Source: Gnetum montanum (taxonomy: Eukaryota; Plantae; Gnetophyta). From it: a stretch of DNA of 64,000 nt. The stretch spans positions 214,831 through 278,830 of the forward strand of contig MNCI01002538.1 in the NCBI GenBank assembly GCA_015680685.1, written 5' to 3'. The notes under the pieces were generated by a model. That model was not told where the DNA came from. It saw only the letters and a program-made list of their open reading frames with translations, and did not search any database. Position numbers and translations under genes: made by a program. Shown in pieces: positions 13,910-63,420 of this stretch; positions within the stretch are counted from its first letter, which is position 1; the number at the start of each line of letters is the position of its first letter.

Positions 13910-16900
13910 TATTACATCCCTTCCAGACACATTAGCTATGGTCATACGATGATGATTTATACATTATGTGTCATCTCAGTTGGTTATTGCGGATGACTTA
14001 GCTTATTGTAATTGCACTTTATCTATTATGATTATGATGTTGTTACATGATTAACCAACATGATTATGTACGCTAGCCCTATGGGATGTGTTAGATATGT
14101 GATGTTTCTTATTAGGATGTTGACTTGGGGTACAAGAGCACCTATGCAGTATGCAATTATGCTTTATATGAACATTCAATAGTCATGCATTTGAACTCTA
14201 ACACTATGTTGTATGATGCTTTGGTGTGATTTTGACATGTGAAGGTGTAGAGCATTTGATAAGGATCTTGTAGGTTCAAATGGATTTTATTTTGAAGTCC
14301 TGGTATGGTTGTTATGTACGTTTGAAATGCATGGCATTAGTTGTAGAGGTGAAAAGAAAAATAATATTAGCTTATAAAAATAAAATAGTTAAGAAAAAAA
14401 CAAATAAAAATTATAAAGTTAGGTTGTGCACATGATGTGCACCAAGGAAAAAAAAGAAAAATAAATTGCTTCTATCTTTCTTTTATAAACATATGCTTAA
14501 AAGCATAGTTTTTCTTTTATCATTGTTTTTTTCTTGCTGCCCTTTTACATCACCCATCCATAAAAATTGGGTTTTGTCTAATTTATTTTATTTTGTGCTA
14601 GATTAGTATATATGATCATGAGATGTGGGCATGTGGGGTGGATAGTTAAAATATTGAGCTTGGACATGTTATTTTGCTTATTTCATGAAATTGTACAGTT
14701 TTGGTTAGGAATTGTTTACTAATATATAGGAAATGTATGGTATGATGTAGACTTGGGGAATATGATATGTGATGTTGATGAGACCAATTGGGTTGAAATA
14801 TTATATTTTAGGCACCTATTATGGTGCAAGAGTTTCCAAGTGTCTTAGTCATCACTAGTTGTAATTAAATATTATTAAATATTATTTTATTAATCAAACT
14901 TTAAACATGCATAACTTTGTTTACAAGAGTTTTATTTAGGTGAAATTAGTATCATCAAGATTTTCTTGGAAATTATTTTCTAATCATGGAATTGTTATTT
15001 TGGACATATATGATTTTGGAGGTTAGTATAGTGGTCATTTTGTGGTATTACATGTAGTTTAAGAAATATGATTGTGGTGAAAAATTTTGTTTTGTTGAAT
15101 TGTGGTATTATTTTCATGGAATGAAAGTGATTGTTAGGTGTGGATATATGTGGTTATGTTATGTTGGTTTTGGATGTGTTGTTCTTGTGACATGTGTTAG
15201 CTTAAGCTAGCCAAGCTTTGTACTTGTCTTCATGATGATGCTTGTGATGGTCATTGGCAGGTGGTGCTAGCATGGGGGTGTGAATCAATTGGTGATGAGG
15301 CACATTGGTGGTATTATGGATTGATCCCCGCTATGATGCATTAGTGAGGATCTTGTCTTAGGCCTCATCTTGAGAGTGGGAGAGAATACGTGTGTCCCTT
15401 TCTATGGCTAGTACGTTGCATAAGTGTGTTCATTCCTATAGCTAGTACTTCAAAATGCTAGTGTTTGTAGGTCATATGTTGACAGATCCTAGCACCAGTT
15501 AGAAAATAATAGACTAATAAAAGGCCTATAAGAAATGACTATTTATGAGTATTCATGGAAATGTTTCACATACTACACTAAGTCTTGATATGCTAGTGAC
15601 CACATGGGCTATGTATATGATAGTATTGACTATGTATATGATAGTCTTGTTTTATGAGTCATAGCACTAATATATATCTATATATACTATTTAGATGATG
15701 ATTATGTGAGACATACATTGTTTCATGGTATGAAGTAGGTATGATGGCATGGGAAAGATAGTGGAAATGCATGTGATGTGGTGTAATAGATATGTGATAG
15801 ATTATGTTAGATAGTGATTTTATCTACAATTGTATGATAGCCATCTATTATCTATGATAATGATTCTACCAATGATATGGTATGTGTGTGGGTGTTTGAT
15901 GAGTTGCAATTGGCTTCGTCGACTAGGCCTTGTCAACCTGGCCTGTTGACTAGGAGCCATTGACGAGGCCTTGTCAATGCATCATTTCATGCATCGACTA
16001 GGTCCCATCGATGTAGGGTATACTTTTGCCTATAAATATGAGCTCATTAGCTACATTTATGGCACATCTTGTTGTAGTAGTGGTGGAGCTCTTATAGTTT
16101 TCCCATTTGAGAGTTAGGATTTTTTTTGAGTGCCTATAGCAAGACTCATTGAGTATATGGATTTTTATTCAAGCATTGTTGTACCTAAGCATGATAGTGT
16201 GTGTGGGAATAAAGATGAGATTTCTAATAAATCTTATAGCATTTTGTGATAGATTATATATTTTATTTATACATTCAATTTTTTCAATTAGTTATTCAAT
16301 ATTTTTTAGTAATTAAGCTAATTAAGATAATTAAGTGAGATAAGCTAGATAGATTAAATACATATGTATGACCACTTTGAGCATAACATGTATTCACTTA
16401 GTAATCCTAGCAGTGTTAGTGCTTGGTGCACCTAGTAGCGTAGTGTTTGGTAACCTAGCAATGGATACGTGGGTTCAGGACGTGTGCAAAAACTAGGAAT
16501 GGATGCTTATGTTAGGATTAGTTAGTTAATTTAGATTAGTCATTAAAGTACACACACTCTCTCTCTTCAAGTACCAAAAAACAAAAAACATAAAATGATA
16601 TGCTTCTATTACTCTTAACCATATCATTATTCTTTACAAGTGTAATTGGGAAGACAAAAAATGATCTTAGGGTAAGGTTTAGTTCCTAGAAGACTAGTGT
16701 ACTGGAAACTATAAAGTCCATAGAATTCGACCAACTCATGTGTGAATAATTTGTGATTCATATGGTTGGAAATAGGGGTACCTCACTGTTCATTAGTGTT
16801 ATTTTAAGCATGCACAAGATTAACAGTTGTTGTAGGTTACCTTATATCCCACTCCTCCCCTCCTATGAAGTACTTGTCGACAGTCTAGCAAGGGAAGTGC

Positions 16901-23200: not shown

Positions 23201-24160
23201 CATATGATACCATGTACTGGGACTCCCTCAAAGACATCATGCTTTGAACGAGGATTCACCCAAATTTTGTTAATTTGTGTATAAACCTCAAGGCCATCGA
23301 AGCCTATTCGTTGAATATTAATGAATGTTTATTGGTGTTTTTCTCCCCCCACTAGGGACTACACCAAGGTGATCCCCTTCCATGTTACATGTTCATTATT
23401 ACAATGAACACAATGAATGCATACTATAAGTTAGAAAGGATCAAAGGACTAAACATTGTGGGAGTTACATGTATTTTTGAATACTATGTAGATGACATGA
23501 TATTGTTTACCAAGGTGATTGTATCATAGGTGTAGGCCATGGCTAGAGCCCTCACAAGAGTGTCCTATGAAATTTATGTTACTACTAATTGGGATAAGTT
23601 TGCTACTCATTTCTTCTTTATAGAAATAAATGTTAAAGAAATATGTTGAATCTTGGAAATCCTACTAAGATATTCTTGATACTTCTACTTAGGAGTGCTC
23701 ATGTTTTCATGGAATAGGAATATCAACTAGAACTATCTAAGTCAAAAGATCTAGGCAAGGGTACAACATTTGACCTCCTACTTCCATACAAGGAATAGGT
23801 GGATGCTACTAGCCTTGTTGGTACTTTCCATCATGCTAAATTTTATTGCTTTAGTGGAAACACCTTTAAAAGGGGTTATCACCAAATTAGAAAAAATCAT
23901 CTGAAACTTAATCTAGTTAGGAGGAAGGGAAGGTTATTGGACGAAAATTATATGTTGGGAAAAGGTGGCATGGTTGAAGAACTCAAGGGGTTAAGGTGAT
24001 GGGTTTTGAGGATGTTAACTTGATGGGTTTTCAAGGTCTTATTAATTGATTCATATGGGAGGATAGAGGGTAGACACACTAGGCGATTATCTTCAAAGGA
24101 AATATCAACCATGGAATAGGGACATGTGAGGCTCTCACCCATGGAAAAACGTTTGCATGT
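20230..24160 (+). mobile_element. L1-type LINE, degenerate, 5' portion (ORF1, endonuclease, RT)
   Basis: DUF4283-like WNYILLGGPWFFD near 20675-20713; RT motifs LGLDGW..KFFREF, IMLIPKIYNPTDPTHFRSIRACN (22892-23080), RGLHQGDP near 23353, YVDD near 23485. Left boundary approximate. Confidence 0.85.
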
Positions 24161-24180
24161 TGATGAGACGTGACATGCAT

Positions 24181-24262
24181 AGTGCCATGATATCGCTTAC
24201 GCGATATCGTGGCCGCCGCGATATCCCGTCTCTCCATGCAATATCACGTACGCGATATCGTG
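24181..24262. repeat. Clustered palindromic GCGATATCGC-type repeats in U3
   Basis: Five imperfect copies upstream of the TATA box; also at 30411-30495. Confidence 0.85.
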
Positions 24263-24277
24263 GTCCGCCACCATATC

Positions 24278-24285
24278 TATAAATA
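24278..24285 (+). promoter_or_regulatory. LTR TATA box
   Basis: CTATAAATAAGAGG, conserved in family LTRs (30511, 61726; CTATAAATA at 16030); AATAAA at 24454-24459 followed by a T-rich tract. Confidence 0.75.
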
Positions 24286-24533
24286 AGAGGTGGCACTCCC
24301 TTCATTTCCCAATCTTGGCTAGAAGTAGCAAAGCTCTGACAGTTTGAACACTCCAGAGTTAGATTAATTTCCCATGTGCCCGCAGTAGGAGTCCTAGAGT
24401 GAACGGCTCTTTATTCAAGCAACTTTGTAACCTGAACAAAAGTTGTGTACGAAAATAAAGATGAACTTGATTGGATAAACCTTGCAGTACATGGTTTTAT
24501 TTTGTTGTTATTTATTGCTTTCCTAGTGCGCAT

Positions 24534-24952
24534 GAGTACTACTTGATTACGAGCATCTACGGATGTGTACGACTAATCAAGGAATCAGCTGCTCGTCGCA
24601 ACGCGTGAGTACGACTTGATTACGAGCATTGGATTACTTGGTAACCCAATAGCGTATTCCAGGATCTGCGCTTGGTAATCCCAGTGGTAGTCCAATGTGT
24701 ACGACTAGTCAAGGAATCAGCTACTCATTGCTAGGCTAGAATGTGTGATAAGTACGACTTGGCTACGAGTGCCCACGGGTGTGTACAGCTAGCCAAGGAA
24801 TCGACTGCTTATCACACTTAGGCTAAATAGGTGCCTTAGTACGACCACTTCGAGCACGTGCGTTACGTGTGGTGATCCCAGTAACGATTAGCGTTTGGTA
24901 AGCCACAGATGCACAGTTCAGGGTGTGTACGGTAAGTGGGAACGGATGCTGA
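24534..24952 (+). ncRNA. Candidate structured cis-RNA element, four tandem covarying stem-loop modules in LTR U5
   Basis: Fixed loops AGTACGA / CGAG / TGTACGG / GAA(T)CGG separated by stems whose sequence changes while pairing is kept; function unknown. Confidence 0.6.
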
Positions 24953-25653
24953 TGCTAGTTAATTTAGACTTAGGTCCTTAGTTAGAGTTAGCTTAGTTTA
25001 TCAACCCTTTCCCTCATAGCTTAGGAGATAAACTTAAAAATACCAAAAAAATCATATACCTCAGACTTGCTTAACCATACACCGTGACACATACAAGCAA
25101 GCCTGGGAAGACAACGAACGATTAACCNNNNNNNNNNNNNNNNNNNNNNNNNNNNNNNNNNNNNNNNNNNNNNNNNNNNNNNNNNNNNNNNNNNNNNNNN
25201 NNNNNNNNNNNNNNNNNNNNNNNNNNNNNNNNNNNNNNNNNNNNNNNNNNNNNNNNNNNNNNNNNNNNNNNNNNNNNNNNNNNNNNNNNNNNNNNNNNNN
25301 NNNNNNNNNNNNNNNNNNNNNNNNNNTAAGGTTACATATACTCATCCTGATGAGTATGTCCCTGACTTTACTTTTATTCTCCATCAAGATGAACAACTGT
25401 GATGGAGAGATCTACAAGGTAACATTGTGTTAGCCCCAGAAGGAGCAGCCCCTAACATGCTTTTCCGTGCCTTAGCACATATTGGCATGCAAGAACTGTT
25501 TGCAGAATACATTCTGGATGACCATGACACAAGGGATTATCATCCCACAAATGTCCAACATATTCAGGATGCAAGGCAGGAGAGCCAACATTCATTGTTG
25601 AAGGGAAGGTCCCCCATGTCCTTAGTGAAATAGGAGACGAGGAACCCCTCACA

Positions 25654-28144
25654 ATGGGTTTCTTAGAAAATGATTTTCCTCCTCCTCACTCTGGTGAAGA
25701 GGATAGGCATCAGGGCCTTAGATCAACGATACATATTCCAGGCTCTGATCCCCATGAGCACCAACTGTTCACGGCAGTAACAAGCACTCACACTAAGGAC
25801 AAACACTTGGATCATTACAATGATCGGGGCCGAAGTAGCCGAAGAGAAGGTAAGAAACATCACCATGGTGATGGATCCCCTTCTTCTCCTCCTTCATCTC
25901 ACCATTCACACTCTCCTTCCACATTTGGGCGCAACCATCGTGAGCATAACGTAGAGAGTAAAAGTAAAAGGGAAGATGAAATACCTCGACAAGAAGGTCG
26001 AGAGGAGTTAGGACAAGGGCAAGGACGTAGGGAGAGTAGGGAACCACCACGAAGACATCATAGATGTCATGATAGAGATGATCATGAAAAACCCCTTCTC
26101 GCAACCTGAAGCATGCTCGATATAACAGAGGCAGTTAGGATTCCCACAAGGAATTTTAAGGACAGTCAGATCAAGTGTTTGGACATAAATAATATCCCAC
26201 GTTTTGAAGGGGGATACAACACTGATCCTCAACATCATTTACAGGCATTCCATGATTCCTGTGCCTTGCAGAATATAGATAATGAGTGGTAGAAACTCAA
26301 GTTGTTCCCAAGGACACTCACCAAAGAAGCAGGAAGCTGGTACCGGTCCTTAGAACTAGAAACCATCAGGAGGTGGAGTACGATGCTTGAACTGTTCAAC
26401 AACAAATATCAAACATACTCCAGAGTGTCCAACTTGCGTAAGCAGATCCAAGGCTGGAAACAAAGAGCTTATGAACCCTTGGATGCTGCCATGGCTCGTT
26501 ACTATACACTGCTACATCGTTGCCTGGGCCATGGGTACGCTAAGCGGGATCAACTTCGCCACATCGTGGATGGGCTAAGAAATGAAATGAGAAGAACTCT
26601 TGGGACTTACGCCCAACGGAGACTTTCTCAACTGAGAGCCCATGAAGTTGAAAGCTTGTTGGAGCAAGTAGCGCAAGAAGAGGGTGAGCTAAGAAAGAGA
26701 GAAAGTGTGGAAGAATACAACCGCGATCTCTCCCTTCACAAGAAGGGAGTGAAATTCTGTGATGAGGAGGATGAGTCACCACTCGAGGAGTTGGTGAACC
26801 GGAAAACTATGCTGATCCAAAAGTTAACAACCGAGGTAGAAAAAATGTGGGATTCCTTAGACTCATGAATTGAAATAGTCCTAAAAATTGTAGAAGAGTC
26901 TAAGGTAGAACAAGGTAGTGACAAAGGCAAAACCAAGCGGAGAAACTTAAGCCCTGCACATAACAAGGGTAAGGGGAAAATTCCTATCTCCGATGAGGCT
27001 GAAAATTATTATTCAGACAATGATAGTGGATGTGAGGTCTACTACTATGACCATCCTAAGGGATGTTGCCCAATTATCTCACATCTGCAGGAGTCTGGGG
27101 TGTATGCATTAAATCCAAGACTTAATCAACGGCAAACACCCTGAAGGTTACCTTACCCACAAGGTAACCCAAGGCAGTTCCACCAACCCTTGACATATTA
27201 TCCAAGTGGAATGCCTCCATAGCCCATTGGACAATATCAGCAGTGGCAATACCCACAGTCATGGGGGATGCCACCGCCAACACATCAATACCCTTATCGG
27301 CAGCCTGATCCTTATGGTTATTATGTGCAGCAGCTAGTTTCTCTAGGTGACTCTATGGGTCACACTACCCCCCAACTTCACTACCAAGCTCGGGAGTACT
27401 TCAGAAGGACTTCTTCTTCTCCAGGAGACAATCCATACCCACACCATCCTCCTAATCCAACCGCATCTCTTCCGCCTCAAGTAGTTCCCATAACACCTCC
27501 TGCTCCAACAATGCAAAGGGAATTGCCTACCCAACCGCAGCAACGTAACGCCACGAGAGCTGTAAGTATTCAGAGTGTAAATATCCAACCAGGTACTAGT
27601 TCTAGCGATAACTGTACAAAGAAGAGACCTTTTTCCAGAAGTAGGAGCCCAGACAAACTCTCGCAACAACAAGTGGATGGGTACATGTATAGGCCTCTAA
27701 CCACTAATGCTTCAGAGAACCCTTCAGTCCAAGGGAGCATAACGCATACGGTTATGTTAACACATACCGTAATTGACTGGATCAAGGTAGGCCACCTTCC
27801 CAGGAAACTAACTGACCCTGGGAGTCCCTTTATTTATTTGCAGATCGCTAGAAATGCACCACATCGAGCTCTTCTTGACTTGGGTTCCGGAGTCAACTTA
27901 ATTTTGCAATAGATGTATCACACTTGGAACCTGCCCCAACTTAAGAAGAGCAACATCCAACTAGAACTGGTGGACCAGTCCATCACCATTCCCTTAGGAT
28001 TGGTGGAGGATGTTATTACCACTGTGTGTGGTTGGTTCTACCCAGCGGACTTTCTGGTGATCGAAGTGAACAACAACGAAGGGGACTTCCCAATTATAAT
28101 GGGAAGGGCATGGCTAAGCACAATAGACGCATGCCTTAGGATCC
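25654..28144 (+). pseudogene. gag: Gag plus aspartic protease reading frame with a few in-frame stops
   Basis: Retrotrans_gag-like LFPRTLTKEAGSWYRSL...W..M.ELFNNKY (26302-26868); Athila/Tat-type PR DPGSPF...ALLDLGSGVNLI...YPADFLVI...PIIMGRAWL (27268-28144). Confidence 0.9.
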
Positions 28145-30394
28145 NNNNNNNNNNNNNNNNNNNNNNNNNNNNNNNNNNNNNNNNNNNNNNNNNNNNNNNN
28201 NNNNNNNNNNNNNNNNNNNNNNNNNNNNNNNNNNNNNNNNNNNNNNNNNNNNNNNNNNNNNNNNNNNNNNNNNNNNNNNNNNNNNNNNNNNNNNNNNNNN
28301 NNNNNNNNNNNNNNNNNNNNNNNNNNNNNNNNNNNNNNNNNNNNNNNNNNNNNNNNNNNNNNNNNNNNNNNNNNNNNNNNNNNNNNNNNNNNNNNNNNNN
28401 NNNNNNNNNNNNNNNNNNNNNNNNNNNNNNNNNNNNNNNNNNNNNNNNNNNNNNNNNNNNNNNNNNNNNNNNNNNNNNNNNNNNNNNNNNNNNNNNNNNN
28501 NNNNNNNNNNNNNNNNNNNNNNNNNNNNNNNNNNNNNNNNNNNNNNNNNNNNNNNNNNNNNNNNNNNNNNNNNNNNNNNNNNNNNNNNNNNNNNNNNNNN
28601 NNNNNNNNNNNNNNNNNNNNNNNNNNNNNNNNNNNNNNNNNNNNNNNNNNNNNNNNNNACAAACGCTCATTACTTCGGATCTCTCCCTTACAACTCAGTC
28701 ATGGGGGAGATGTCCACCTATGCTAACCATATGGAGCCCTCAGTTCTTTTTCGGTTTTTGTTTTACAACATTTTTGTTTTAAAACGTTTCTGTTTTACAC
28801 ATTTTTGTTTTACAAATTTCTTTAACTTTTCCAATTTTTGTTTTACAACTTTCTTTAACTGTTCTTGTTTTTATTTTACACCATCGTTATACTTTTCTAT
28901 TTTGTGTGTGTGTGTGTGTCATCCACCATGTAAGTTCGTCACCCAATAAGTGTTCAGGCCGATGGGATGAACTGTTTTTCATTAATTGCTAATGTTTGGT
29001 TTNTGTTACCCATTCTTCGGAAGCTGAGACAATAAAAATAAAGAAGTCTTTGCATGGTGTGGTCCCCACGCATAAAAACATAAAACAAAAGAAAAACCAA
29101 AAGTGAAGATTCAAAGCATACCCCTTAGATGGAATAAACTGTGGACTGCAAGCATTGGTTATGGAACCAAAGTGTTCCCTCTAACTAAGGCCCTTCTCGC
29201 TTCCCATTCTCTCCTTTGTTTCGTCGGAATGGTGGTGGCTCTTTGAAGATACATCCTTGTTATCCAAGTGGATGATTTAGCCAAATGCATTAATGCAAAG
29301 TCACTGGAAGTGGTTGGTTTGAGCCCGAAGTTGGAATGAGATTCACCAAGTCACATTAATCATACAACACACAAGGGGCTATACACCACCTTGTTCTTTG
29401 GATTCCATTCCACGTCCCTTCTCTTCACCCTTCTCTCCACTATTCACCTCATTTTCGGTTGTATCATTAGTGTATATATTTTGGTTGATGCATTGTTTTC
29501 TTTTTGGTAAATTCTTACGGTAAAGACTTTAACTCTTATTCCAAAGGACGTTCCCAGAGCCTACGGACTCTTTGAATGTGAGATTGTCAGGGCATTAAGG
29601 GCATGAGCCTGCTTTGGGGAGGACCCACTAACATTCCTATTTGGACCATTAGTTAACTTCTTTTCCTTAACATTTTGCAATTAATTTTCAGTTTTGTTCA
29701 TTTCCATCTTGACATCCACTTCACTGATGCCATAGTTGTCCCTTTTTACCTATCTTTCTTACTCCTTTTCTTTCTCCATTCTAACACTACCGGAGGTTCG
29801 CGATTAGTAATGGGGGTATGGGACCTGCTTTTTCAATTTTTCTCCTAAGCCCTGGATTTTTTTGTTTTTCTCCTTAACCCCTACACCTTCGGTAGTCATC
29901 AGCTACATTTTCCCCGATCCATATTAGCCATACCACAACCTAGCCAATGAACCTAAACCAAAGCAAGTTATTATTTACTTAATGATTCAATTACCCTTGC
30001 TAATGTATGATTGTGTTGTGTGTGCAGATGGAAATCATACAACAATGGAATGGATCTGGCACAAACACTTGAAATGGAGCAGCGCTAATGCAGCTACGCA
30101 AGGAGTGGAATGGATAATGCACTTACGGATGGACAGCAGAAGGCGCAATCTTGGTGTTGGCAACAACAACAATTCTTTCTATATCTCTCTTTCTCTAAAG
30201 TTGCCAACAAGGGCTTGATGTCATTGTAATAAGGTGTTCACCCTTGTTATCATGAACACTAGTTTTTGTCAAGTCTTGTAATAAAGACCCATTCACATGC
30301 CATCCCATTAGTTCCATTTCCCTCAATAATCCCATACCTACCTGATATCATTGTAAGGAACTCAAGGACGAGTTTTCATTCAGTCATGGGGGTA

Positions 30395-31470
30395 TGATGA
30401 GACGCGACATGCATAGTGCTGCGATATCGCATCCCTTGCGATATCGCATACGCGATATCGAGTCTCTCCATGTGATATCGCGTACGCGATATCACGGTCC
30501 GCCGCCATATCTATAAATAAGAGGCGACACTCCCTTCATTTCCCAATCCTGGTTAGAAGTAGCGAAGCTTTGACAATTTGAACACTCCAGTGTTAGATTA
30601 ATTTCCCATGTGCCCGTAGTAGGTGTCCTAGAGTGAATGGCTCTTTATTCGAGCAACTTTGTAACTTGAACAGAAGTTGTGTATGGAAATAAAGACGAAC
30701 TTGATTGGATAAACCTTGCAGTACATGGTTTTATTTTGTTGTTATTTATTGCTTTCCTAATGCACACGAGTACGACTTGATTACGAGCATATACGGATGT
30801 GTATGGCTAATCAAGGAATCGACTGCTCGTCGCAACACGTGAGTACAACTTGATTACGAGCATTGGATTTCTTGGTAACCTAGTAGCATATTCCAGGATC
30901 TACGCTTGGTAATCACAGTGGTAGTCCAATGTGTACGGCTAGTCAAGGAATCGGCTACTCATCACTAGGCTAGAACGTGTGATAAGTACGACTTGGCTAC
31001 GAGCGCCCATGGGTGTGTACGGCTAGCCAAGGAATTGGCTGCTTATCACACTTAGGCTAAATAGGTGCCTCAGTATGACCACTTCGAGCACGTGCATTAC
31101 GTGTGGTGATCCCAGTAACGATTAGCGTTTGGTAAGCCACAGTTGCACAGTTCAGGGTGTGTACGGTAAGTGGGAACGGATGTTGACGCTAGTTAATTTA
31201 GACTTAGGTCCTTAGTTAGAGTTAGCTTAGTTTATCAACCCTTTCCCTCATAGATTAGGAGATAAGCTTGAAAATACCAAAAAAATCATATACCTCAGAC
31301 TTGCTTAACCATACACCGTGACACATACAAGCAAGCCTGGGAAGACAACGAATGATTAACCCCAAGCATTTCTTGTGGCGTTAAGGCATTTAGTCTGCGG
31401 AGTTCGACCAGATCGTGCGTACACGCTTGTATTCATATGGTTCAGTGTAGGGGTACCTCGCCACTCATCA
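30395..31470 (+). repeat. 3' LTR (1076 bp)
   Basis: TGATGAGACG...CCACTCATCA after the PPT at 30381-30392. Confidence 0.95.
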
Positions 31471-32450
31471 CATGTAATCATAGATGAGGCTTTTAGGGAT
31501 AGCATTGTGTAAAGCAATGAAACAAAAGTACCCCATTGCTCAAGGTTGGAAAAAAAGTTGAAGGGGTTGTTTGCCAAAAACAATTAAGTGCTTCTTGTGG
31601 CTCATACTCTAAGATGTCATCCTAGTTCAAGCCTTACTCTAGGAACATGATCTCCTAATAAATAACAATTTTCCCCTTTGCCACTTTGTATAGAATTTCA
31701 TCCACCTATGCTTCTTTACCAGAGTAATCTAGAGAGTGTTGGGCATTATGCCTTCACAATGACTTAGTAGCAACTCCTCGATAAGTGCAATACTTTAGGC
31801 CCTTTGGTAGACAAGCAAAGAGCTAATATTTTAGGCCTCCTCACTCAGGGCATCATCACAAATTATTCTACATGAAAACCAATGATGGAAGGAAGCTATA
31901 GTGGTAATGGAGGTGATTCCTAAATTTGAATTGGACTACAAGGGTTTTAAGAGCAATTAATTGCTATGGGACATGGTGGTATAGATTAGGTATGATGATC
32001 TTCTTCCCCTCCACATTGATGATCTTGACCTCTCCTATGCTCGATTTTATAGGTGATGGAGAGGTGGTTTTACCATATTTCATGGTGTCCATATGCATCA
32101 CATGGAAATGACTCTCATGAAGTATTCAGGGCTACCTGTGGCATGTAAGATTATGCTACCTATTGGATAAGGGCTATAGGATGTAGAAAATGTTTTCAAT
32201 GGGCTACTCTCAGAAATAAGGAGTGGCTAGATCCCCAAGTTATCCCTCTTGTAGTTATGGAAAGAGGTGGTGAAGCTATTAGAATAATTTATCATTTGAT
32301 CTAGCAACATCTAGAAACTACAGTGTGCATACTTTTCCTTTCTTAGGTGCATGTAACTAGGGTAGCTAACGAAGTTACTTAGACTCTTCCTAGACTTCCT
32401 CAACCGAGGGAGATAGGTTCATTACTCATGTCTCATTCTCACTCTTTGGC
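31471..32450 (+). mobile_element. L1 LINE 3' portion (continuation after the LTR insertion)
   Basis: Resumes after the CATGT duplication; RNase H-like C-terminal motif VHVTRVANEV near 32347-32376. Right boundary approximate. Confidence 0.6.
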
Positions 32451-33105: not shown

Positions 33106-33959
33106 TGATACGCAACAAGTATCCCCTACACCCAACCATACAAATCACTAGGGTGTATGTTTAATTTGGTCAAATTTTGTGGACTTTATTTATCTAAATG
33201 ATCAATATTCTTACATAGTAAAATATATAGCCATTAATTGTTGTCTTCCAAATCAACACTTATGTTAATCCATGCATATTTATACTTTTTATTTCTTTCT
33301 CTGCTTCTTAAATGATTAAGTGAATAAAGATTTAATATTTAAATTAAATAACTACTTGACTACTTAATTAACTAACTAGCCTAAATGTGAAGTATTCATT
33401 TCCACTTTCTATACACATCCTAAACATATACTAATGTTGGTGGATTACCAAGTGTTTACTATTGGATGTACCAAGTATCCACTATTGGGATTACCAAGTG
33501 TTAATATATTATGCTTGAAGTGGTCATACTCATGTTGCTTAAAAATGATAATTTTAATTGATTAATATTAAGAATGTAAATTTCATAAAAAGTAAATTAT
33601 TGAAAAGTAAAGTTATGCTAATCCAAGTGCTATAATGGATTGAACAAATCTTGATTTTATTTCTGCTCATACGATTGTGTCCAGGTACATGTGCACTTGA
33701 ATAAAATCACATAAATCTACATTTTGGGCACTCAGTGGTAAAAATATTCTAACTTCTATGGGATGAAACTACAAGATTTTTGCTAAGGGAATGGCTAAAA
33801 TATGCCATAAATTTGATGGGTGTGTACATTTATATAGGCAATGATTACATCACTGATGATGGACCTACATCAACACATCCTTAGATTCATCAATGGGGCT
33901 ACATCAATGAGCATGCATCAATGTAGTCACCTTATTGATAATTTATTATACGTTCATGA
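33106..33959 (-). mobile_element. Old LTR (probably solo) of the Athila-like family
   Basis: Reverse complement ends GTATGGTTGGGTGTAGGGGATACTTGTTGCGTATCA and contains the U5 motif (33388-33534); the end near 33959 is approximate. Confidence 0.75.
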
Positions 33960-35402: not shown

Positions 35403-36030
35403 ATGAGTGACATCCTAAAAAGGATGCTTATCGTAGGGAGACAAGTGGAAAAGCTTGAGCTAAAGAATGAGAAACTTGAAGATCAAGTAGTAGTTCAAGC
35501 TAAGGCTATGACATCTAGTTCTGGGTGGTCTAGCCAAAATTTCCAAGCTAAAGAATCCAATATTTATAAGGGCAATCAAGATGACAAAATCTTTGATACC
35601 TTCATCTTTGAGATGGAGTTCTTTCCTGAAATGAATGATTACCCTAAGGAAATAAGAATCAACATCACAACTCAATTTTTGGGAGGTGTTGCTTAGCCTT
35701 GGTGGCTTGGTATTTTGCATGAAATGAAGTTGGGGTCAATTCATTGGGTAATGAATACTTGGAAGGATATTAAGTTTACTCTTACTGAAAACATTCACTT
35801 GGGCACTTCAATTGATCAAGCATGGGTGAAGTTGAAAGAATTCCAACAAACTGGTAAGTTTGAGGATTGCCTACAAGAATAGTAAGAAAGTTGTGGATGA
35901 GGAAAAAAAGTTTTGTCTCTTTCTAAATGGCCTAAAACCATGGGTCCAACAAGAGATTAAGTTTCATAAGATTACTAAGTATAGAGAAGCACTAGAGTTG
36001 GCAACTAGTTTAGTAATTAATATGAAGTCC
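35403..36030 (+). pseudogene. gag: Ty3/gypsy gag fragment of a different lineage
   Basis: YKGNQDDKIFDTFIFEMEFF...FLGGVA*PWW...KLKEFQQTG...FLNGLKPWVQQEI. Confidence 0.75.
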
Positions 36031-36399
36031 TAGAAATAGGAGAAAAATGAAGTTGATGTAGCTCCTTATGGAAATAGGTCAAGTTGTGAAATTAGTGGAT
36101 TAGGAGATAAAAACGTTTGGGGTGGGTTTTAGGGAACTTGTCCTATCATTACCTCTAGTCCTTAGGCATCATACCAAGGATTTGGGAAGTGACAGGCTTC
36201 TAAGGATCATGAGCAATTTGGAGATAAGCGATCATGGGATGTTTTATTTCTATGTGCTAAATTTCTAGCATCCTTATTTTCTTCTCTTCCATTCCTAGAA
36301 AGCTCTACATCTTCATCTTCTTTTAATGAGCCTCCATGTTTATGTCTCACATGAAATGGTAGTAGCACCTTGATTGTGGGCTTCCTCCTCTTAAGCATA

Positions 36400-36694
36400 C
36401 TAATATTTAGTTGGAGTTAGTAAAATAATCATACACATACCCCATGAAATAGGTATGTACTATAATCACTTATATTGCAAAATGGTCATATCCCATTGAT
36501 TTTATAGTTCTTAGATCAGAATATAAGATGGAAGAGGATCTTCCTATTATCATGGAAAGAGCTTGCTTAAGCACTACAAATCCTAACTTGGCTTTCTAAG
36601 AAATCTACCTCAAGCTTGGTAGAAGGCATGAGACTAAGGATAAATTACAAGAGAATAACCTATGATCCTTATTAGTGTTGTTGCATTATGCACT
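36400..36694 (+). pseudogene. Athila-like protease C-terminal remnant (host of the Tat insertion)
   Basis: WSYPIDFIVL...DLPIIMERACLSTT, homologous to 28030-28140. Confidence 0.7.
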
Positions 36695-37816
36695 TGTTGA
36701 TGCATAAATTTTGGTCACATCAACACTAGGAAAGAAAACTCGTTTTAGGAGACTATTGCCTAGGGCGCCTCCCATATGGGTATGGAGACCCAAGAATAGT
36801 CTTAGCTAGATAGGGCTACATGGCCTTTTGCAAATAATAAACAAGAAAGAAATCTAGAATTATATAATTGTCTTCAATATAAATAGGTAATTAAAAGAAT
36901 TGAATTTTCCTTGGTCCCACTAACATTGCTGATCCGTGACTGTTGATGGTATCCATTGCTGGGCAAGAAGACTGTGATCACCATGAGAGAGGGAGAGAGA
37001 GAGAAAGAGATTATCCACTGTAGTCCACATAGGGTAGCAACTGTAGTTCTTAAAGCGTGCTACCGTATGCCACCTTTTGTGCACTTCCGTAGAGAGGAAG
37101 ATTGTTCACCCATGTCTACACCACCATGACAAGATCCTGTCATCATTGAGAAGACTTGCAAGGATCCAATTTTGAGCTACTAGCTCCTACCTTAGACCCT
37201 TCTCAAAGATCAACTAGAAGCCTCTAAAGAAAAGAAAAGAAAAGAAGAAACTGCTGCTTAGTGGAGAGGAAGCTGCCCCTTTAGATTGATAGCCAGAGCC
37301 TATTTGGGACTCCATCACCCCCAATTCCTCTCTAAAAGTCCCCCCTCTAGATTGATTTTATAGCCACTGCGGCCATCCATAATGATGTCTACATTCTCTA
37401 ATTTAAGTGCCCACTATGTCCATAACTTCCAAAACATCTGCCATTAATGTTTGAAACCACCACCACTAATGATCATAACTGCCACCATTAATGATTGTAA
37501 CTATCATCATTAATGATTGTAACTATCGTCATTAATGATTGTAACTATTGTCATTAATGATTGTAACTATTACCATTAATGCTTATAACTATTGCCATTA
37601 ATGATTGTAACTGTTACCATTAATGATTACAACTATTGCTATTAATGATTGTAACTATTGCCATTAATGATTGTAACTGTTACAATTATTAATGACCACC
37701 ACCTAATAGTTTAAACGCCAACTACTCGCATGATTTTTATTGTGGTTATTAAGAGAGAGAGATAGAGACGTTGATAATCATGGCCCCATGAGAGCATGGG
37801 AGTGTTGACATCAACA
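36695..37816 (-). repeat. 3' LTR of the Tat-type element
   Basis: Homologous to 45588-46739; preceded on the minus strand by GTTTGGAGGCTAAG (37830-37817), a decayed PPT. Confidence 0.92.
37440..37700. repeat. 22-bp tandem array (CATTAATGATTGTAACTATTGC) in the LTR
   Basis: About 10 units; equivalent array at 46340-46620. Confidence 0.93.
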
Positions 37817-39009
37817 CTTAGCCTCCAAACTTTTAATTACATGCTAGTGAAAGGAACAAGACCATAGAATCTTTAAAATGATGCAAAAGGTAGGGATTCA
37901 CAAACATCACAAAACAAGCAAATGGAAACTTGAAAGTAAACTAAACATGATTAAAATAACCATATAATCAAAGGAGAACTAAGCATGGGCCACCCAAACC
38001 ACACCATCTTATTTAATTAAAATCAAAATATATAATTTTATAATTTTATAATTTTAACTACATATATCTATATATAATTAAAATATAATTATGATTTCTT
38101 TCCCAATCTTCTTACAAAGTAAAAGCCAACAGCATGAAGACTACTTTGAGCAGATGACCCATACTAAACTTAATGAGAAGGACAGGCTCATATTAGATTG
38201 TGGCTAGTCACAAATTTCAGATTTTTCCTTGGAAATTTTTTTTTAGGAAAATTTGCCCATGGTGTACTTCATTCTTAAGGTAGGAATTCTAGCATGAGTC
38301 TGGCCAATTAGCTACACTACCAGTGAACATGGTCCTCATTCCTTTTTTTTTTGAGAAAACTTTGCCCATGGTGTAGTTCAACCCTCATGTATGTACCTTT
38401 AATTACAATTTGATAGCATCATAGTAGGTCTCCTGGGTGGCTAAGGGTTCTCAAGTGAAGATAAATACACTTCTCCCCATTATTCATAGGGTAACCATGG
38501 ATCATCACTCTTGAGGGCTAGGGCTTATGAGAGGGAAAATGGGATTTTCCAAGGTCACCTAGTGATTATGGCAAACCATTTTCCAATATCACCTATCCTA
38601 CACTCACATGATCATGATGATTACATGATAAGTTAGCAAAAATCTAATGCTCCATAATCCAACATAACTATAGAAACTAAAACCTTGAGAAAGACTAGGA
38701 AGAATCAAAGCATTATTAAAATATATAGTATAAAAGAGATTTTATGTAATAGTAATAAGAAATATTATATAAAGCATTATACTCACATTATTTTTAGATG
38801 GTTTTTTGATGACCCAACACCTAGTAACTCAAAAGACCATAATGATTATTAAAATCATATGCAAAGAAAAAATCAAAACAATATGCCAAGAAAGAAATGA
38901 CAGAAGTGTAAAGAAAATATGCAAATGCAACTATATACAAATGAAATGCATCGTGAAGAGGAAGAAAATATGCAACTAAGAATCTACTATTTGTACACGT
39001 GGGGCACCT

Positions 39010-41700
39010 GAGTAGAAATGCTTCAAATGAAATGCATTAAAATTTCTATGTAACCTACATCCTTGCAAATCAACAATATTATATACATTGGGGCCAACAA
39101 CCTCTGCAATTCGGAATGGACCAGATCACATAGGAGAAAACTTAGTCTTAGGGCCGATCTAACCAAATGCTCTATCTCTCTTAAGAACCAAGTTACCTAT
39201 TTGAAATATTTTTGCTGCATATTTCTTATCAATTCATTTCTTGACAATTTGTTGATGACTACATAGATTCTCGATCTCTTTAACCCTTTTATGTTCTAGA
39301 TTACAAATGTCACATGCATGTGATATTAGATGCTCATCAGTTGGCAAATAGTCCAAGAAGAATTAATATGTTGTAATTTGCAAATTAATTGGCAATATTG
39401 GTTCTTGTTCGTACACTAAGTCGTATGGTGTAGTTTTGATTGACTCTTTATAATGGACCCTATCTGCCCAAATTGCCCATTTTAGCTATTCATGCCAAGT
39501 TCATGGGTTTTGGGCTATCATTTTCTTAATTCCATCTAATATGATTTTTTTGGACTACTCAGCCAACCATTACCCTATGGATAATATTTGATTACCACCT
39601 TGATAATGATGTTCTGTTCTCTAGCCTAATTTATAAACTCTATGGAGATGAAGGCATGCCTGTTGTCAACTACTAAAGTGTAAGGATACCCATACCTCAA
39701 GATTATATCATTTTCTAGGAAGCGAATGACCTCATGAGATGATGTAGTTTTAGTTGCATTTTCTTGTAACCAACATGTGCAATAATCCATGGCTATTAAG
39801 ATAAACTTGTGTAGAGTAGTAGACAAAGGATTAATCACTTCAATAAAATCTAAAGCCCACTATGCAAATGGTCTAGCTTCTATGATTGGCTATAAAGAAG
39901 CTGAAGTCTTGGGGTCTTTACCCTTAAATATTTGACATTACACACAAGTTCTAACCAAGTTATGAGCATCATTTATCATAGTAGGCCAGTAATAACTAGC
40001 CCTCATAATTTTATGAACTAATGAGTAGTATCCTATATGTCCTTCCTCGTGAAGCTATTCCAGAGCATTGTTAGCATGTTCTTGGTCTAAGCATTTAAGG
40101 TATATCTCTTGGAAGTTCTTTCTAAATAGTTCACAACTTATTAAAGTGAATTTCAAAAATTTTGATATTAAACGTTTTCTCTTATAGCTAGGTAAATCCG
40201 AGGGACAATGATGGAAGGTTAAATAAAATTTAATATCACCATACTAGGAATCATACAATCGATTGGGAGCAAATGGGATATCAATTTCCTCATCAATGAA
40301 TAACATGTGAAAAGGAATTGATGCTTTATCTTTGGATGCATCATAACGTTCTGAAGTTGAGGCTTTGGAAATTAGCTCGACAAGGCCAATCCCTCTAACT
40401 AGCTTGGCCACCTTCCATTGAATATCATATTCTTGCAAATTCATAATTCATTTAGCATGTTTTTCACTAGGATCTTATAATTTAGCTAAAGCAATGGTAG
40501 TTGGGTCAGGGACAATGACAAAGACTTTTGCATTTAACAAGTAGTAGCGTAATTTATTTAAGGTTTTTATTACAGCATACAATTGCTTCTCTACAAGTGA
40601 GTATCTTAATTCTACATCCTTTAAAGGTGTAGACATGAAATCTATGGGTCTCTCACCTTGGTCATTTATGTCTTGGGTTAAGATAGTAGTAGCAATAACG
40701 TTAATAGAAAAAGCATATAAGTGAAAGTCATTTTCATACCAAGGAGAGGCCAGGATAGGGGCATCTATAATAGATTATTTGATATCAAGGAAAGCATTCT
40801 TTCTTTCTTTTGTCTAGTGCATATTACTATATTTTTTAAGCATCTCATTCAATGGTCTAACTAATTCAACATAGATGGGGATAAATCGTCTAACAAAGTT
40901 GATTTTCCCAAAGAATGCCCTTAGATCAGTTTTGGATAGTGGGTAAGGTACTTCTAAAATTGCATTCACCCACTCAAGGTCAATCACAATCCCCTCCTTA
41001 GTCACTATATGACCCAAGAATTTACCACTTTGAACACTGAAGGTATATTTATTTGCATTCAGGGTAATATCAAATCGTCTACATCTAATTAAAATGTTTC
41101 TTAGGTCTCTAAGGTGCGTACCTCAATCTTTGGAGAAAAAGGTTAAGTCATCTAAGTAGATAATAATGAACTTTTTAATTAGCCCTTCAAAAGTATTATC
41201 CATAGCTCTTTGAAAGGTAGCACAAGCATTTACAAGGCCAAAGGGCATTTTAGTGAACTGAAAAGTTCCCCATTTTGTTGTTAAAGCTGTTTTGTACTGG
41301 TCTTTCTTATTTACTAAAATTTGGTTATATCCTAAATACCCATCTAAAAAGGAATACATTTGAGCCCCATTCACAATTTGCAAAAGCTTCTCCATAAGGG
41401 GAAGTGAATAATTATCCTTAATGCAAGAAGTATTAAGGTTGTAGAAATCAATACATAACCTTAATTCACCAGTACATTTTCTAAGAGGTACTAAGTTTGA
41501 TATCCAACTAGAGTGTCTCACTGGGTAAATAATTTTGGATTCTAGGAGCTTGTCGATTTTAGCTTTCATGAGGGCTTCAATCTTTTAATTTACAAGTCTA
41601 ATTTTTTGCCTGAATGGTTTTGTTTTTGGCCTAAGGGGAATTGTATGTGTCATTAATAATGGATTGAAATTTTTAAGGTCTTCGTAAGTCCAAGCCAAAA
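39010..41700 (-). pseudogene. pol: RT - RNase H - integrase remnant of the Tat-type element
   Basis: RT LRLCIDF...FLDGYLGYNQI...MPFGLVNA...IYLDD (41123-41569); RH RYSLVEKQLYA near 40575-40610; INT FILIAMDYCTCW...LVVDN (39626-39838). Confidence 0.92.
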
Positions 41701-42055
41701 CATCATTAAACTCATGTAATAATTCAACTAGGCTTTGTCTTTCATCTGAATGTAAAAAAACTCCTATTTTAATAGGATATTGTTTTCCTTTCTTTTGAAT
41801 CTAGATTATTTCATTCTTAGCTAACATTTGTCAATTAGTATTTTTGGACAAGTCTCTGGTCTTGGTGTGCAAGTTGTCAAATAATGCTTCCCTAACAGCT
41901 ACTTCAGGAGATACTTTGTTTAAAAACACAACATCCTTTGATATATCCCCTTGATTACTAAATTATCCTTTAGAAAATAGAAATTTACAAATGTGGTCAT
42001 CATTGTCAAATAGTTGAAAAGAAAACACATTATTAGGGATAGAATAGGATTTCAC

Positions 42056-42808
42056 CTATTCAATAATAATTTCTAAATCCCAAGCATTGTGTTTGAATGG
42101 GACATCCAAAGTGGTGGCCATTTGGGCTAGCGCATCAAGAATGTAATTTTCTTCTCTAGGTACGTGTTCAATGGTTACATATTCAAACTCTTTAAACAAT
42201 TCAAGAATGTAAGCTTTATATGCTTTCATGGTGACATCTTTATTGTCAAAGGTTCCATTGACTTGGTTTACTATTAGTTGGGAATCACTATAGATTTTAA
42301 TCTTGGACAAGTTGTAATATTGAGCTAACTTGATCCCATGTACAAGTGCTTCGTATTCGACCATGTTGTTAGTCATAGGTTGTGAAAAATTGATGGCTTT
42401 AAGGATAGGAGCTTCACCAAGAGGTATAAGCATTATTCCTACTCCACATCCTTTCTTGGAAGAGACACCATCCACTCTTAGTATCCAAGTGTTTAAATTC
42501 ATGAAATTAGAAAAATTGATCCTTTGGTCAAGGTAACAATGATCATCATCAAAATTTGGTCCATTCTCTAATATTTCATTGGTTAGAACCTCACTTACAT
42601 CGTTATCATTTCCTAGTGGTAGTGGGTCACCGAAAAGAAAAGTTCTTACATCATGTTGGTGGTATGGCAAAGTATCTTCATACACCCTCTCACATTCCCT
42701 AAAAGCTTGATAATATTGGGTAGAATACGTGTACATAAGAGGGTTTATGCCTAAGGTTTCACCCACATCGTCATTCATAAAATATTCTCCAAGCCCTAGC
42801 TCAATCAC
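42056..42808 (-). CDS. Archaeal-type RNase H (aRH, RVT_3-like) domain of the polyprotein, still an open frame
   Basis: WILRVDG..SKKGCGVG, TNNMVEYEALVHG, IYSDSQLIVNQVNG, HVPREEN..LDALA; all D-E-D-D positions present. Confidence 0.9.
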   Translation of the reverse strand: MIELGLGEYFMNDDVGETLGINPLMYTYSTQYYQAFRECERVYEDTLPYHQHDVRTFLFGDPLPLGNDNDVSEVLTNEILENGPNFDDDHCYLDQRINFSNFMNLNTWILRVDGVSSKKGCGVGIMLIPLGEAPILKAINFSQPMTNNMVEYEALVHGIKLAQYYNLSKIKIYSDSQLIVNQVNGTFDNKDVTMKAYKAYILELFKEFEYVTIEHVPREENYILDALAQMATTLDVPFKHNAWDLEIIIE

Positions 42809-42850
42809 TCCAACAAAGGGGTTGGTATTTTCATTTCCTAGAGGTTTACT

Positions 42851-45563: not shown

Positions 45564-45581
45564 ACCCTCTTTCTAGCACCA
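45564..45581 (-). other. Primer binding site, probably tRNA-Asn
   Basis: Minus strand TGGTGCTAGAAAGAGGGT, 6 bp after the 5' LTR; resembles TGGCGCTAGAAGGAGGG, the complement of the plant tRNA-Asn 3' end as recalled, not searched. Confidence 0.65.
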
Positions 45582-45587
45582 AAAAGG

Positions 45588-56612: not shown

Positions 56613-57523
56613 TTATGAAGTGCTATATAGTCAATGCGTCGACTAGACCGCGTATATGGGGCCCCATATACGCAGTCGCGTTGACATGGCCCCATCAACG
56701 TAGCCTTCCTACCTCAACGTGGCCCCGTCGACGTAGCCTTCCTGCATCGACGTGGCCTTGTTTACGCAGCCGCCTATCTTAGCCTACAAATAAGAGGGCC
56801 TTCCACCTCATTTAGGCACCTTTCTAGTTAGTTGTAGCAAAGCTGTTGCATTTTGTTTCCGTAGAAGTTAGATTATTTTCCCAGTGCATGCCTATAGTGT
56901 GATGCTCATAATTGTATGGAACGTTTATTCAAGTGTGACGTACTTGGATGCCCACATGACCAGAAATAAAGATAGAGATTACTTCATCATTGCAGCATTC
57001 AATTAGATTTAATTGTTTAATTGTTATTGTTATTTATTTTTTTCTTAGTTAATATTTATTTATCATCATTTACTATTCCTATTGTTAAATGTGGAATGAG
57101 TACGACTTAATCACGAGCATTTAAGTACGACTATTTGGTAACCCAGTAGCATACCTAGGATCTACGCTTGGTAATCCCAGTAGTAGTCATGCACGAGGTC
57201 CAAGATGTGTACGGATGATTAATGAATGGATTCTCATTGCACTTAGGCTAGCTTAGACTCATTTCCTATTACTCATTAGTTTAATCAAGATTATTTTCCA
57301 TTGTCTCTAGGAGTAACACTAATTTATGATCACATCATACGCCTCACTCTGGACTAAACCATATGTGACAAAGCAAATACTAGTCCATGTGGGAAGACAG
57401 CGAACTACGATCAACGTGTAAATATCTAGATACCACAACTAGCCTCTCCACAGAGTTCGACCGGATCGTACGTGAATGCTCGTATTTGTATGGTTGAGTG
57501 TAGGGGTACCTCGCTGCTCATCA
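56613..57523 (+). repeat. 5' LTR
   Basis: TTATGAAG (TG changed to TT)...GCTCATCA; more U3 TCGACG-type repeats than the 3' LTR. Confidence 0.92.
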
Positions 57524-57542
57524 TTGCTGTTGTTGTCGGGGA
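57524..57542 (+). other. Degenerate primer binding site, Athila-type (tRNA-Asp)
   Basis: TTGCTGTTGTTGTCGGGGA resembles TGGCGCCGTTGCCGGGGA after C-to-T decay. Confidence 0.6.
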
Positions 57543-61615: not shown

Positions 61616-62465
61616 TGATGAAGCGCTATATAGTCGATGCATCGACTAGGCCACGTAGACGTGGGCCCGTCTACGTAGCCTTCCTACATCGATGTGGCCC
61701 TGTTTACGTAGCTGCCTATCCCAGCCTATAAATAAGAGGGCCTTCCGCCTCATTTAGGCACCTTTCTAGTTAGTTGTAGCGAAGCGCTTGCATTTTGTTT
61801 CTGTAGACGTGAGATTATTTTCCCAGTGCATGCCCGTAGTGTGATGCTTGTAATTGTATGGCACCTTTATTCCAGTGTGACGTACTTGGACGTGCACATG
61901 ACCAAAAATAAAGATTGAGATTACTTCATCATTGCAGCATTCACTTAGATTTAATTGTTTAATTGTTATTGTTATTTATTGTTTTGTTAGTTAATATTTC
62001 TTTATCATAATTTACTATTCATGTTGTTAAATGTGGAATGAGTACGACTTAATCACGAGCATTTAAGTGTGACTACTTGGTAACTCAGTAGTGTACCTAG
62101 GATCTATGCTTGGTAACCCCAGTAGTAGTTGTGCACGAGGTCCAAGATGTGTATGGATTATTAATGAATGCATTCTCATCGCACTTAGGCTAGCTTAGAC
62201 TCATTTCCTATTACTCATTAGTTTAATCAAGATTATTTTCCATTGTCTCTAGGAGTAGCACTAATTTAGGATCACATCATATGCCTCACTTTGGACTAAA
62301 CCATACGTGACAAAGCAAATACTAGTCGAGGTGGGAAGATAGCGAATTCTGATCAACGTGTAACTATCTAGATACCACAACTAGCTTGTCCATGGAGTTC
62401 GACCGAATCGTGCGTGAATGCTCATATTCGTATGGTTGAGTGTAGGGGTACCTCGCCGCTCATCA
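61616..62465 (+). repeat. 3' LTR
   Basis: TGATGAAG...GCTCATCA; TATA at 61727-61734. Confidence 0.95.
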
Positions 62466-62735: not shown

Positions 62736-63420
62736 TAATGAGAGGCAAAGTAACCCTATGCCCAACCATATGAATCACAAGCATTCATGCACAATCTAGT
62801 TGAATTTCATAGACTTAGGAGTAGATTGATGCCTTAGATAACTAAGAAATGGAAAGCTAATTATTTTCTTCCTAATTAAGGCTATGTTAGTTCGCTTAGT
62901 ATGGTTAAATGTGATCAAAGCATATGATGGCTATTTATTATTATTATAATATTTAAAATATTAAAATAATAAAATAATCTAAAATATCATCAACATAGAG
63001 CATTTATTCTCTACTTTTTGTAGATATCCTAAACATGTACTAATATTTTAGAGTTGTCAGCTATTCACTACTGGGCGTACCAAGTGTTCACCACTAGGAT
63101 TACCAAATGCTACTATATTATGCTTGAAGCAGTTGTGCTCATGTGCATATGTTTAAGTGTAGAATAATGAAACACTTAGCTTATAAAATAGAAAAGTAAA
63201 TAAACATTAAGAGTAAAGTGCAAGAAAATGAATCATAGTACTATTTCAACTGCTACAATGAAGGAAACACATATTGATTCTATTTCCATCATGCACATGT
63301 GTCTAGGTACATAGTGCACTTGAATAAAATTCTATACAACTTGCTTAATACATTCTATGAGCCTTTCAAGGGAAAAATATTCCAAATTTAATAGAAGAAA
63401 ACTTCAAGAATCCTTGTGTT
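62736..63420 (-). repeat. 5' LTR (partial or decayed) of the minus-strand Athila-like host element
   Basis: Reverse complement ends ATATGGTTGGGCATAGGGTTACTTTGCCTCTCATTA, followed by a decayed Asp-PBS-like TGGTTTCATTACTAGGGA; carries the U5 motif near 63000-63145. Confidence 0.7.

Follow-up and report, generated by a model that had tools for sequence, protein, structure and literature searches.

The U5 regions of an Athila-like LTR retrotransposon, hereafter element A, each carry four tandem copies of a predicted RNA module, a rod interrupted by two asymmetric internal loops of the same motif, whose stems change in sequence while keeping their pairing. Comparison of the copies makes it very probable that this fold is under selection as sense RNA. 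Within the databases and literature surveyed, the putative structured leader element is new, combining an uncatalogued loop motif with modular dosage. The window (the whole 64,000-nucleotide stretch of Gnetum montanum DNA analyzed here) holds 13 modules in five LTR families: eight in element A (four per LTR), two in family B and one each in families C, D and E, the last four families having a single module per LTR.

Architecture and coding content of element A

Element A spans 7.3 kb (24161-31470), has the ends TGATGAG and CTCATCA and is flanked by a 5-bp target-site duplication, CATGT. Its 5' LTR (24161..25127, + strand) starts with TGATGAG directly after CATGT at 24156-24160, and its 1076-bp 3' LTR (30395..31470, +) ends with CTCATCA, followed by the second copy of CATGT. 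The LTRs are 92% identical over 970 columns (886 identical, 62 transitions, 19 transversions, 3 gaps), which marks the insertion as old. The 3' end of the 5' LTR, as well as the primer binding site, is hidden by an N gap at 25128-25326. The U3 is short, about 120-150 nt. A TATA box, TATAAATA (24278..24285, +), and an AATAAA (24454..24459, +) were read from the sequence at the places given by the first-pass annotation.

Directly before the TATA box, the U3 (24195-24275, 30415-30510) contains a palindromic repeat array of the CGCGATATCG type, over which reads display strand-switch joints and numerous variants in length; at the equivalent place, other palindrome arrays occur in families B and C. 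Possibly, this is a hypervariable promoter or a methylation-related array. Motif-bearing families have in common a conserved block, ~72 nt long, at the 3' end of their LTRs (31399-31470, 57452-57523, 62394-62465 and 16716-16796, +; 62738-62815, -), and short boxes related to it are present in Athila-type U5 ends of other plants.

The interior contains a stop-interrupted gag fragment (26293..26868, +; PF03732, E 8.3e-10) and an interrupted aspartic-protease-like region (27733..28143, +) with a protease-like motif at 27868; this region has no Pfam match and is directly followed by a 514-N gap. A zinc-knuckle-like stretch of Gag keeps three of four ligands, at 27031 in element A and at 58759 in family B. 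Since the same knuckle place deviates in both, an atypical nucleocapsid of the clade, and not simple decay, may apply. Reverse transcriptase (RT), RNase H (RH) and integrase (INT) were not found in the assembled interiors of A (25327-30394) and B (57524-61616) by tblastn with the window's own RT, RH and INT pieces, a search whose RT probe recovered a different RT at 28% identity. The 3' polypurine tract was read at 30385..30394 (+), and an internal polypurine-tract-like sequence (28695..28709, +) contains a 13-mer identical to one before the 3' LTR.

The PF03732 gag, the 5-bp duplication and an Athila-type primer site mark element A as Athila-like, which bears out the original classification. 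The primer site is documented by reads of other copies, being decayed in family B and masked by the N gap in element A; we take it to be of the Athila-linked tRNA-Asp type. In published work, tRNA-Asp is listed among the primers of non-chromovirus elements (PMC6317226).

Two further repeats of the window were recorded. A neighboring LTR element (36000-46600, -) has coding pieces at 39626-44801 in the order gag, aRH, RT, RH, INT, and its LTRs hold 22-bp tandem arrays; an aRH placed before RT is described as a mark of TatI/TatII elements of club-mosses and gymnosperms (PMC6317226), from which a gymnosperm host would be likely. At 3399-3709 lies a 24-bp tandem repeat array with nine copies listed.

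The modules lie in the 5' leader

Three RNA runs (X21, X22, X24) of one species label were mapped. In X22, 134 reads carry an A-run after 30713, about 20 nt past the AATAAA of the 3' LTR, and 240, 119 and 287 reads in the individual runs pass the LTR end at 31470 and enter primer-binding-site-like sequence. Poly(A) addition upstream, together with reads crossing the LTR end into the primer site, places the modules in U5 and thus in the 5' leader, as initially claimed. Under the usual library convention, RNA over modules 3 and 4 is sense-biased in X21 and X22, with first mates on the minus versus the plus strand numbering 182-257 versus 23-64 in X21 and 33-70 versus 5-17 in X22; X24 has an unstranded pattern there. 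Most RNA reads are 90-95% alike to element A and hence derive from other copies, so that they report on the family and not on this copy. Read ends form three small piles of 5-7 molecules, in libraries not built for cleavage ends.

Anatomy of the module

Anchored parsing of the 13 modules yielded a common layout: P1, CGA, P2, CGA, P3, insert, P3', GUACGGN, P2', GAA(U)CGGN, P1'. The first-pass annotation had drawn two nearly fixed asymmetric loops, and these are confirmed; it had also left the last G of CGAG outside the helices and likened the AGUA and GAA strands to loop E, but both the G and the AGUA turned out to be paired. AGUA falls within P1, and the G after the second CGA forms a G-U pair in all eight rows of alignment A2 and all five of alignment A4 (both described below). 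With that G paired, both loops reduce to one motif, CGA opposite G-W-A-(U)-C-G-G-N, i.e., 3 nt facing 7-8 nt. CG/CG is invariant in each loop; if these bases paired, each loop would become two pairs set between a 2-nt bulge and a small loop rich in purines.

P2 is 6 or 8 bp long, so the spacing of the loops is not fixed. Pairing of P2 is complete (8/8) in six A modules and in both copies of A module 4 (6/6), reaches 7/8 and 6/8 in family B and 4/6 in C, and is again 6/6 in D and E. The 6-bp and 8-bp stems have unrelated sequences, and both are paired. In the 5' LTR, the short modules are capped by C(UACG)G (module 1) and C(CACG)G (module 3). Both caps belong to the YNMG/UNCG tetraloop class (PMC5633025), and in both the tetraloop is closed by a C-G pair.

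In long modules, the rod is extended by two or three UGG-UAA(U)C-CCA units. This second repeated motif, after which come an RU bulge of 2 nt and a stem of 4 bp, was located at 24630-24690, 24866-24910, 57130-57190 and 16385-16470 (+) and at 33410-33500 (-), and in family C its units show a paired change of their own, UAG/CUA. Its likeness to the SRP Alu domain was considered and set aside, there being no Rfam SRP match.

Module inventory and number

Element A carries its four modules at the places first noted, repeated in the 3' LTR at an offset of +6234. All are on the + strand. Module 1 (24528..24597) is a twin-loop rod with an 8-bp P2 and the C(UACG)G cap. Module 2 (24601..24729) bears a 73-nt extension with two UGG-UAA(U)C-CCA units, predicted to form a symmetric internal loop. 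Module 3 (24743..24817) has a P1 of ~12 bp, a compensated P2 and the C(CACG)G cap, and module 4 (24831..24954) has a 6-bp P2 and two UGG-URA(U)S-CCA units. Their 3'-LTR counterparts occupy 30762-30831, 30835-30963, 30978-31047 and 31065-31188.

Family B, whose gag is 55% identical to that of A, has its single module at 57092..57238 (+) in the 5' LTR and at 62034..62180 (+) in the 3' LTR; a nested second module suspected there was ruled out, a plain inner stem being found instead. LTR C (15897-16796) is solo-LTR-like, with GTGTT on both flanks, and contains a decayed module with three inner units (16357..16512, +) placed by eye and anchors. Another decayed module with three inner units lies in LTR D (33384..33537, -; E 0.043 with the covariance model R1 described below). 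The strongly decayed module of LTR E (62990..63145, -) still pairs P2 at 6/6, with one double change and one wobble change. The module 4 type, shared with C, D and E, is likely the ancestral one.

Relatives point to variation in module number. Depth over module 4 is about 4-7 times that over module 3, although depth does not equal copy number, and loose ends occur just before 31065 and at 30965-30970, i.e., before module 4 or module 3. Both observations are consistent with subfamilies having one, two or four modules, which we regard as likely.

Covariation, natural variants and folding

The claim of a sense-strand fold with covarying stems and fixed loops, made in the first-pass annotation, was assessed with two alignments. 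In A2, which comprises eight modules from families A and B, pairing extends to 97.5% of 158 cells, compared with 24-46% in slid controls, and 8 of 20 pairs are changed on both sides, a count reached by 0 of 500 shuffles; further pair types do not exceed the shuffles (385/500). In A4 (five modules with a 6-bp P2), 93.3% of 75 cells are paired, and both the percentage and the score are reached by 0 of 500 shuffles; both sides are changed in 3 of 15 pairs, a count not above shuffles (104/500). These figures are to be read with the sampling in mind: A2 comprises four module types and A4 four families, LTR pairs enter twice, relatedness is left out of account by the shuffles, and the independent module types number only about eight. 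The double-sided changes of A2 and the G-U pairs that favor the sense strand uphold the claim.

The loops deviate from their pattern at 39 of 234 positions, 32 of these being C-to-T or G-to-A changes of the deamination type; the gag sequences of A and B, for comparison, share only 55% identity. A loop-plus-stem descriptor, written from these same sequences, matched the 3' LTR 11 times in sense and never in antisense (500 dinucleotide shuffles: mean 0.002, maximum 1). Over the whole window, it gave 24 sense matches, among them cross-module pairings and one off-target, and 0 antisense matches, with 0-1 in 10 shuffles. The full twin-loop descriptor recovers 8 of the 13 modules and misses decayed copies. 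Covariance model R1, built from A2 and thus without module 4, found both module-4 copies (E 2e-4 and 0.034) and the D module unaided; it did not detect C or E, and two other matches, both weak, were off target.

Modules 3 and 4 were further compared with contig pieces of three other species labels (17,645, 22,093 and 16,306) and with one RNA run (22 reads). This yielded 35 variant rows, 10 of them within core stems. At eight stem sites that are Watson-Crick in this copy, seven variants give G-U and one gives A-C on the sense strand; the other two core-stem variants turn G-U into Watson-Crick pairs. Wobble keeping at seven of eight sites has a binomial probability of about 0.035 against an even split, in species that share ancestry and with some rows possibly due to cross-mapping. 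Variant rows touch 5 of 41 loop places, and only one departs from the pattern, by a CpG-type loss. At two others, this copy departs while most others match, and the remaining two are an N site and the W site, which varies between U and A. Together, the G-U pairs, the wobble-keeping variants and the UACG and CACG caps point to the sense RNA as the folded strand.

Thermodynamic folding, for which the copies at hand are decayed ones, gave a mixed picture. Isolated modules 1-3 of A have z scores of -2.1 to -4.4, and A module 4, B and C lie near 0. Short 3' modules score better in sense than in antisense RNA (-4.1 versus -3.1; -3.6 versus -1.6), whereas 5' module 3 scores better in antisense (-5.4 versus -3.7), and module 3 folded as DNA is stable whichever strand is taken (sense z -2.8, antisense z -3.2). 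When the whole leader was folded, P2 of module 3 was recovered well (0.99, 0.66) and that of module 4 not at all (0.0, 0.0); for modules 1 and 2 the values were 0.62 and 0.60 in the 5' LTR and 0.22 and 0.0 in the 3' LTR.

Distribution of the motif

Rfam 15, whose families include hammerhead, hairpin, twister, pistol, HDV-like, 5S and SRP RNAs, gave no match at the gathering score over the whole window and none at E up to 10 over 24500-24980, in line with the initial failure to match the modules to hammerhead, hairpin, twister, pistol or 5S rRNA. Over 30300-31550 there were nine weak matches, one of them (E 9.1, 30726-30771) barely touching module 1. A prior description of the motif was not found in the openly accessible literature surveyed.

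The full-motif pattern had no match in metagenome contigs. In viral contigs, its sole match (L001, by our reading a GC-rich phage tail region) was rejected as chance, P2 being unpaired in register and P1 absent. A looser pattern had at least 119 matches in viral contigs, where the primer-site and LTR-end patterns had none and gag had no relative; a right-arm pattern had 41 in prokaryotic genomes. The full twin-loop descriptor matched none of the 120 viral loci listed, the 112 primer-site loci listed or the 41 prokaryotic loci.

The primer site is common to the element A family and at least 112 loci of other plants, many with a related gag downstream. R1 at E up to 10 found nothing in the 80 of the 112 listed Athila-type primer-site loci that have long flanks; 64 of the 112 have at least 450 nt upstream, and absence elsewhere is a weak result. 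Protein searches returned four gag relatives, which come without context. The motif thus looks confined to this lineage, given thin sampling and a descriptor that misses decayed copies.

Five of the listed loci of other plants (L131, L135, L174, L183, L200) have three to four similar small hairpins with purine-rich loops in the last 600 nt before the primer site, and two (L172, L122) have other family-specific repeats in the U5 region. In a crude test on 38 Athila-type representatives, purine-loop hairpins numbered 58 in sense, 50 in antisense and 26 in shuffled sequence. U5 hairpin arrays may be an Athila-wide design.

Comparison with known systems

Relative to the Athila clade, element A shares the 5-bp duplication, the PF03732 gag, an internal second polypurine tract and the primer site. 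It differs in that its family's gag is only 24-41% identical to those of the Athila-type loci listed, none of which holds the motif.

The Psi-type signals of retroviruses and Ty1/Ty3 resemble the array in being structured 5'-leader RNA near the primer binding site with purine-rich loops as candidate Gag sites, and the predicted fold and the reads likewise put a structure within the genomic RNA's 5' leader. The array differs in that a single loop motif recurs 2-8 times, on rods that are separate from one another and confined to U5, with a module number that likely varies. Packaging signals of Ty1 map to the 5' 580 nt, Ty3 relies on UTRs or POL for its packaging, and the account cited describes Ty packaging sequences as not precisely defined (PMC4974528). 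A purine stretch in a loop is bound by the Gag of MMTV (PMC8096270), and no significant structure is reported for the leader of plant TR-GAG1 (PMC4350172).

Retrozymes also carry a conserved structured RNA in both LTRs of a non-autonomous plant element. They are described as non-autonomous plant Ty3/gypsy elements with hammerheads in the LTRs, a non-coding interior and a tRNA-Met primer site (PMC4918200). The core of their RNA is a hammerhead, and the Rfam scan found no hammerhead ribozyme in the LTRs of element A. Element A, unlike retrozymes, encodes gag and a protease-like region, has its modules in a row with poly(A) addition upstream of the motif, and, according to the reads, does not use a tRNA-Met type primer site.

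Among loop motifs, loop E had been suggested initially. Loop E (sarcin-ricin) has an unpaired AGUA directly opposite GAA and a bulged-G core, GUA/GA. The suggestion falls at the AGUA, which is paired in P1, three bases out of register with GAA and separated from it by CGA. GUA faces GA in the inner loop, as in such a core; GAA takes the place of GUA in the outer loop and in some inner loops, a minority, and four extra conserved long-strand bases follow.

With the kink-turn several features are shared: the loop is asymmetric and lies between helices, with a 5' bulge on the long strand, a GA on the short strand by the canonical stem and a G opposite the A of that GA. From the sequence, a G at 1b would face an A at 1n, with a bulge of 4-5 nt. 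Kink-turns conserve an adenine at 2b (PMC5061560), whereas the least decayed module loops have G there: over all modules, long strands read GG in 13 of 26 cases, GA in 5, AG in 4 and otherwise in 4, and no variant row of modules 3-4 falls at 2b.

Proposed function and alternatives

We hypothesize that the modules form a multivalent protein-binding array in the 5' leader, a model that we consider probable. Rods would form in vivo, each displaying two identical asymmetric loops on the sense transcript, and the loop sequence would be fixed because a protein reads it, with Gag as the favored candidate. Additive protein binding would account for a constant loop borne on stems that are free to vary, in tandem copies of variable spacing and number, whereas a catalytic core or a precise tertiary dock would not. 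Modules 1-3 may have arisen by duplication of an ancestral module 4 in some subfamilies and then been re-capped and compensated, which would mean that each copy stayed under selection.

That this platform serves Gag-mediated selection or packaging of the genomic RNA is proposed tentatively, with a confidence slightly below the midpoint. It is the preferred role since the modules lie between R and the primer site, where the packaging determinants of Ty1, Ty3 and retroviruses sit. Extra sites would aid a gag-protease-only element in competing for helper proteins. Two observations temper the proposal: the three of four zinc ligands in the Gag knuckle-like stretch of A and B make the usual nucleocapsid recognition uncertain, and family B lacks pol yet has a single module, which weakens the competition argument.

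As the main alternative, the same fold could be a landing pad for a host protein acting in leader translation (by internal entry or shunting), export or localization, a doubtful though conceivable role. R and U5 of the 3' LTR contain 13 ATGs, and with four rods and a gag more than 1 kb further on, plain scanning seems implausible. The retroviral constitutive transport element similarly has twin loops on a rod. U5, however, is in every LTR-initiated RNA and cannot mark unspliced RNA for export, and a variable number of modules is easier to reconcile with additive binding than with an entry site of exact position. The loop does have kink-turn polarity, with the bulge 5' on the long strand and GA on the short strand (PMC5061560), but in the least decayed loops the 2b adenine is replaced by G. 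One speculative version of this idea, which we judge unlikely, is that the loop would be an undescribed kink-turn-like elbow (G for A), arrayed 2-8 times per leader in a gymnosperm Athila-like lineage, that loads a host L7Ae-family or translation protein and was multiplied by gag-only parasites to outcompete helpers.

It is quite unlikely that the rods organize the leader for dimerization or reverse transcription by RNA-RNA contacts, for instance through strand exchange of the repeated inner units or the GUAC palindromes between two genomes. The inner units occur two to three times, adjoin the primer binding site and can adopt a hairpin form or a strand-swapped one, the symmetric internal loop; the swapped form has minimum energy in A5_2, A5_4 and A3_4 and results are mixed in B, C, D and E. 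However, modules 1 and 3 have no inner units and yet keep the twin loops, the hairpin-constrained form outscores the fully swapped one in B5 and D, the units are only partly detected in A3_2, B3 and E, and strand swapping is possible for any repeated hairpin.

A neutral or DNA-level origin, in which an ancestral inverted repeat was duplicated with the LTR or the array binds protein as double-stranded DNA, is very unlikely. The modules are clearly duplicated, independent changes are few, and module 3 folds stably in antisense and as DNA; but neither version would lead one to expect stems that change on both sides, P2 stems of two unrelated sequences, closing G-U pairs that never vary, seven of eight variants keeping a wobble, or two different YNMG caps.

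The self-cleaving ribozyme among the roles first envisaged, which would cut the transcript in both LTRs as the retrozyme hammerheads do, now appears highly unlikely. Fixed loop bases on free stems and the lack of pol in at least family A would suit it, and plant LTR ribozymes exist (PMC4918200). Still, Rfam yields no ribozyme at E up to 10, the family's transcripts receive their poly(A) tail upstream of the 3' modules, nothing would be gained from four successive cutters, and the two loops share one helix at a variable spacing of 6 or 8 bp. If the transcript were cut in its 5' U5, R would be lost, the template of first-strand DNA severed and first-strand transfer blocked. Equally remote is a role at the 3' LTR as a downstream signal in 3'-end processing or in termination by the polymerase: module 1 starts ~50 nt past the poly(A) site at 30713, but the same sequence trails the 5' LTR signal, which needs read-through, and no plant downstream element is known to require a fold of this kind.

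Significance

The cis signals for packaging and translation of plant LTR retrotransposons are largely undefined. The multivalent array proposed here offers a compact covarying unit of 60-75 nt with a fixed loop, natural variants and a dosage series of likely one, two or four modules, in a very abundant family, so that probing and pull-down can address the question directly. Should the loop prove to have a fold of its own, it would be a new RNA motif and found a new Rfam family. The array may also have implications for how very large plant genomes become filled with non-coding and gag-only elements.
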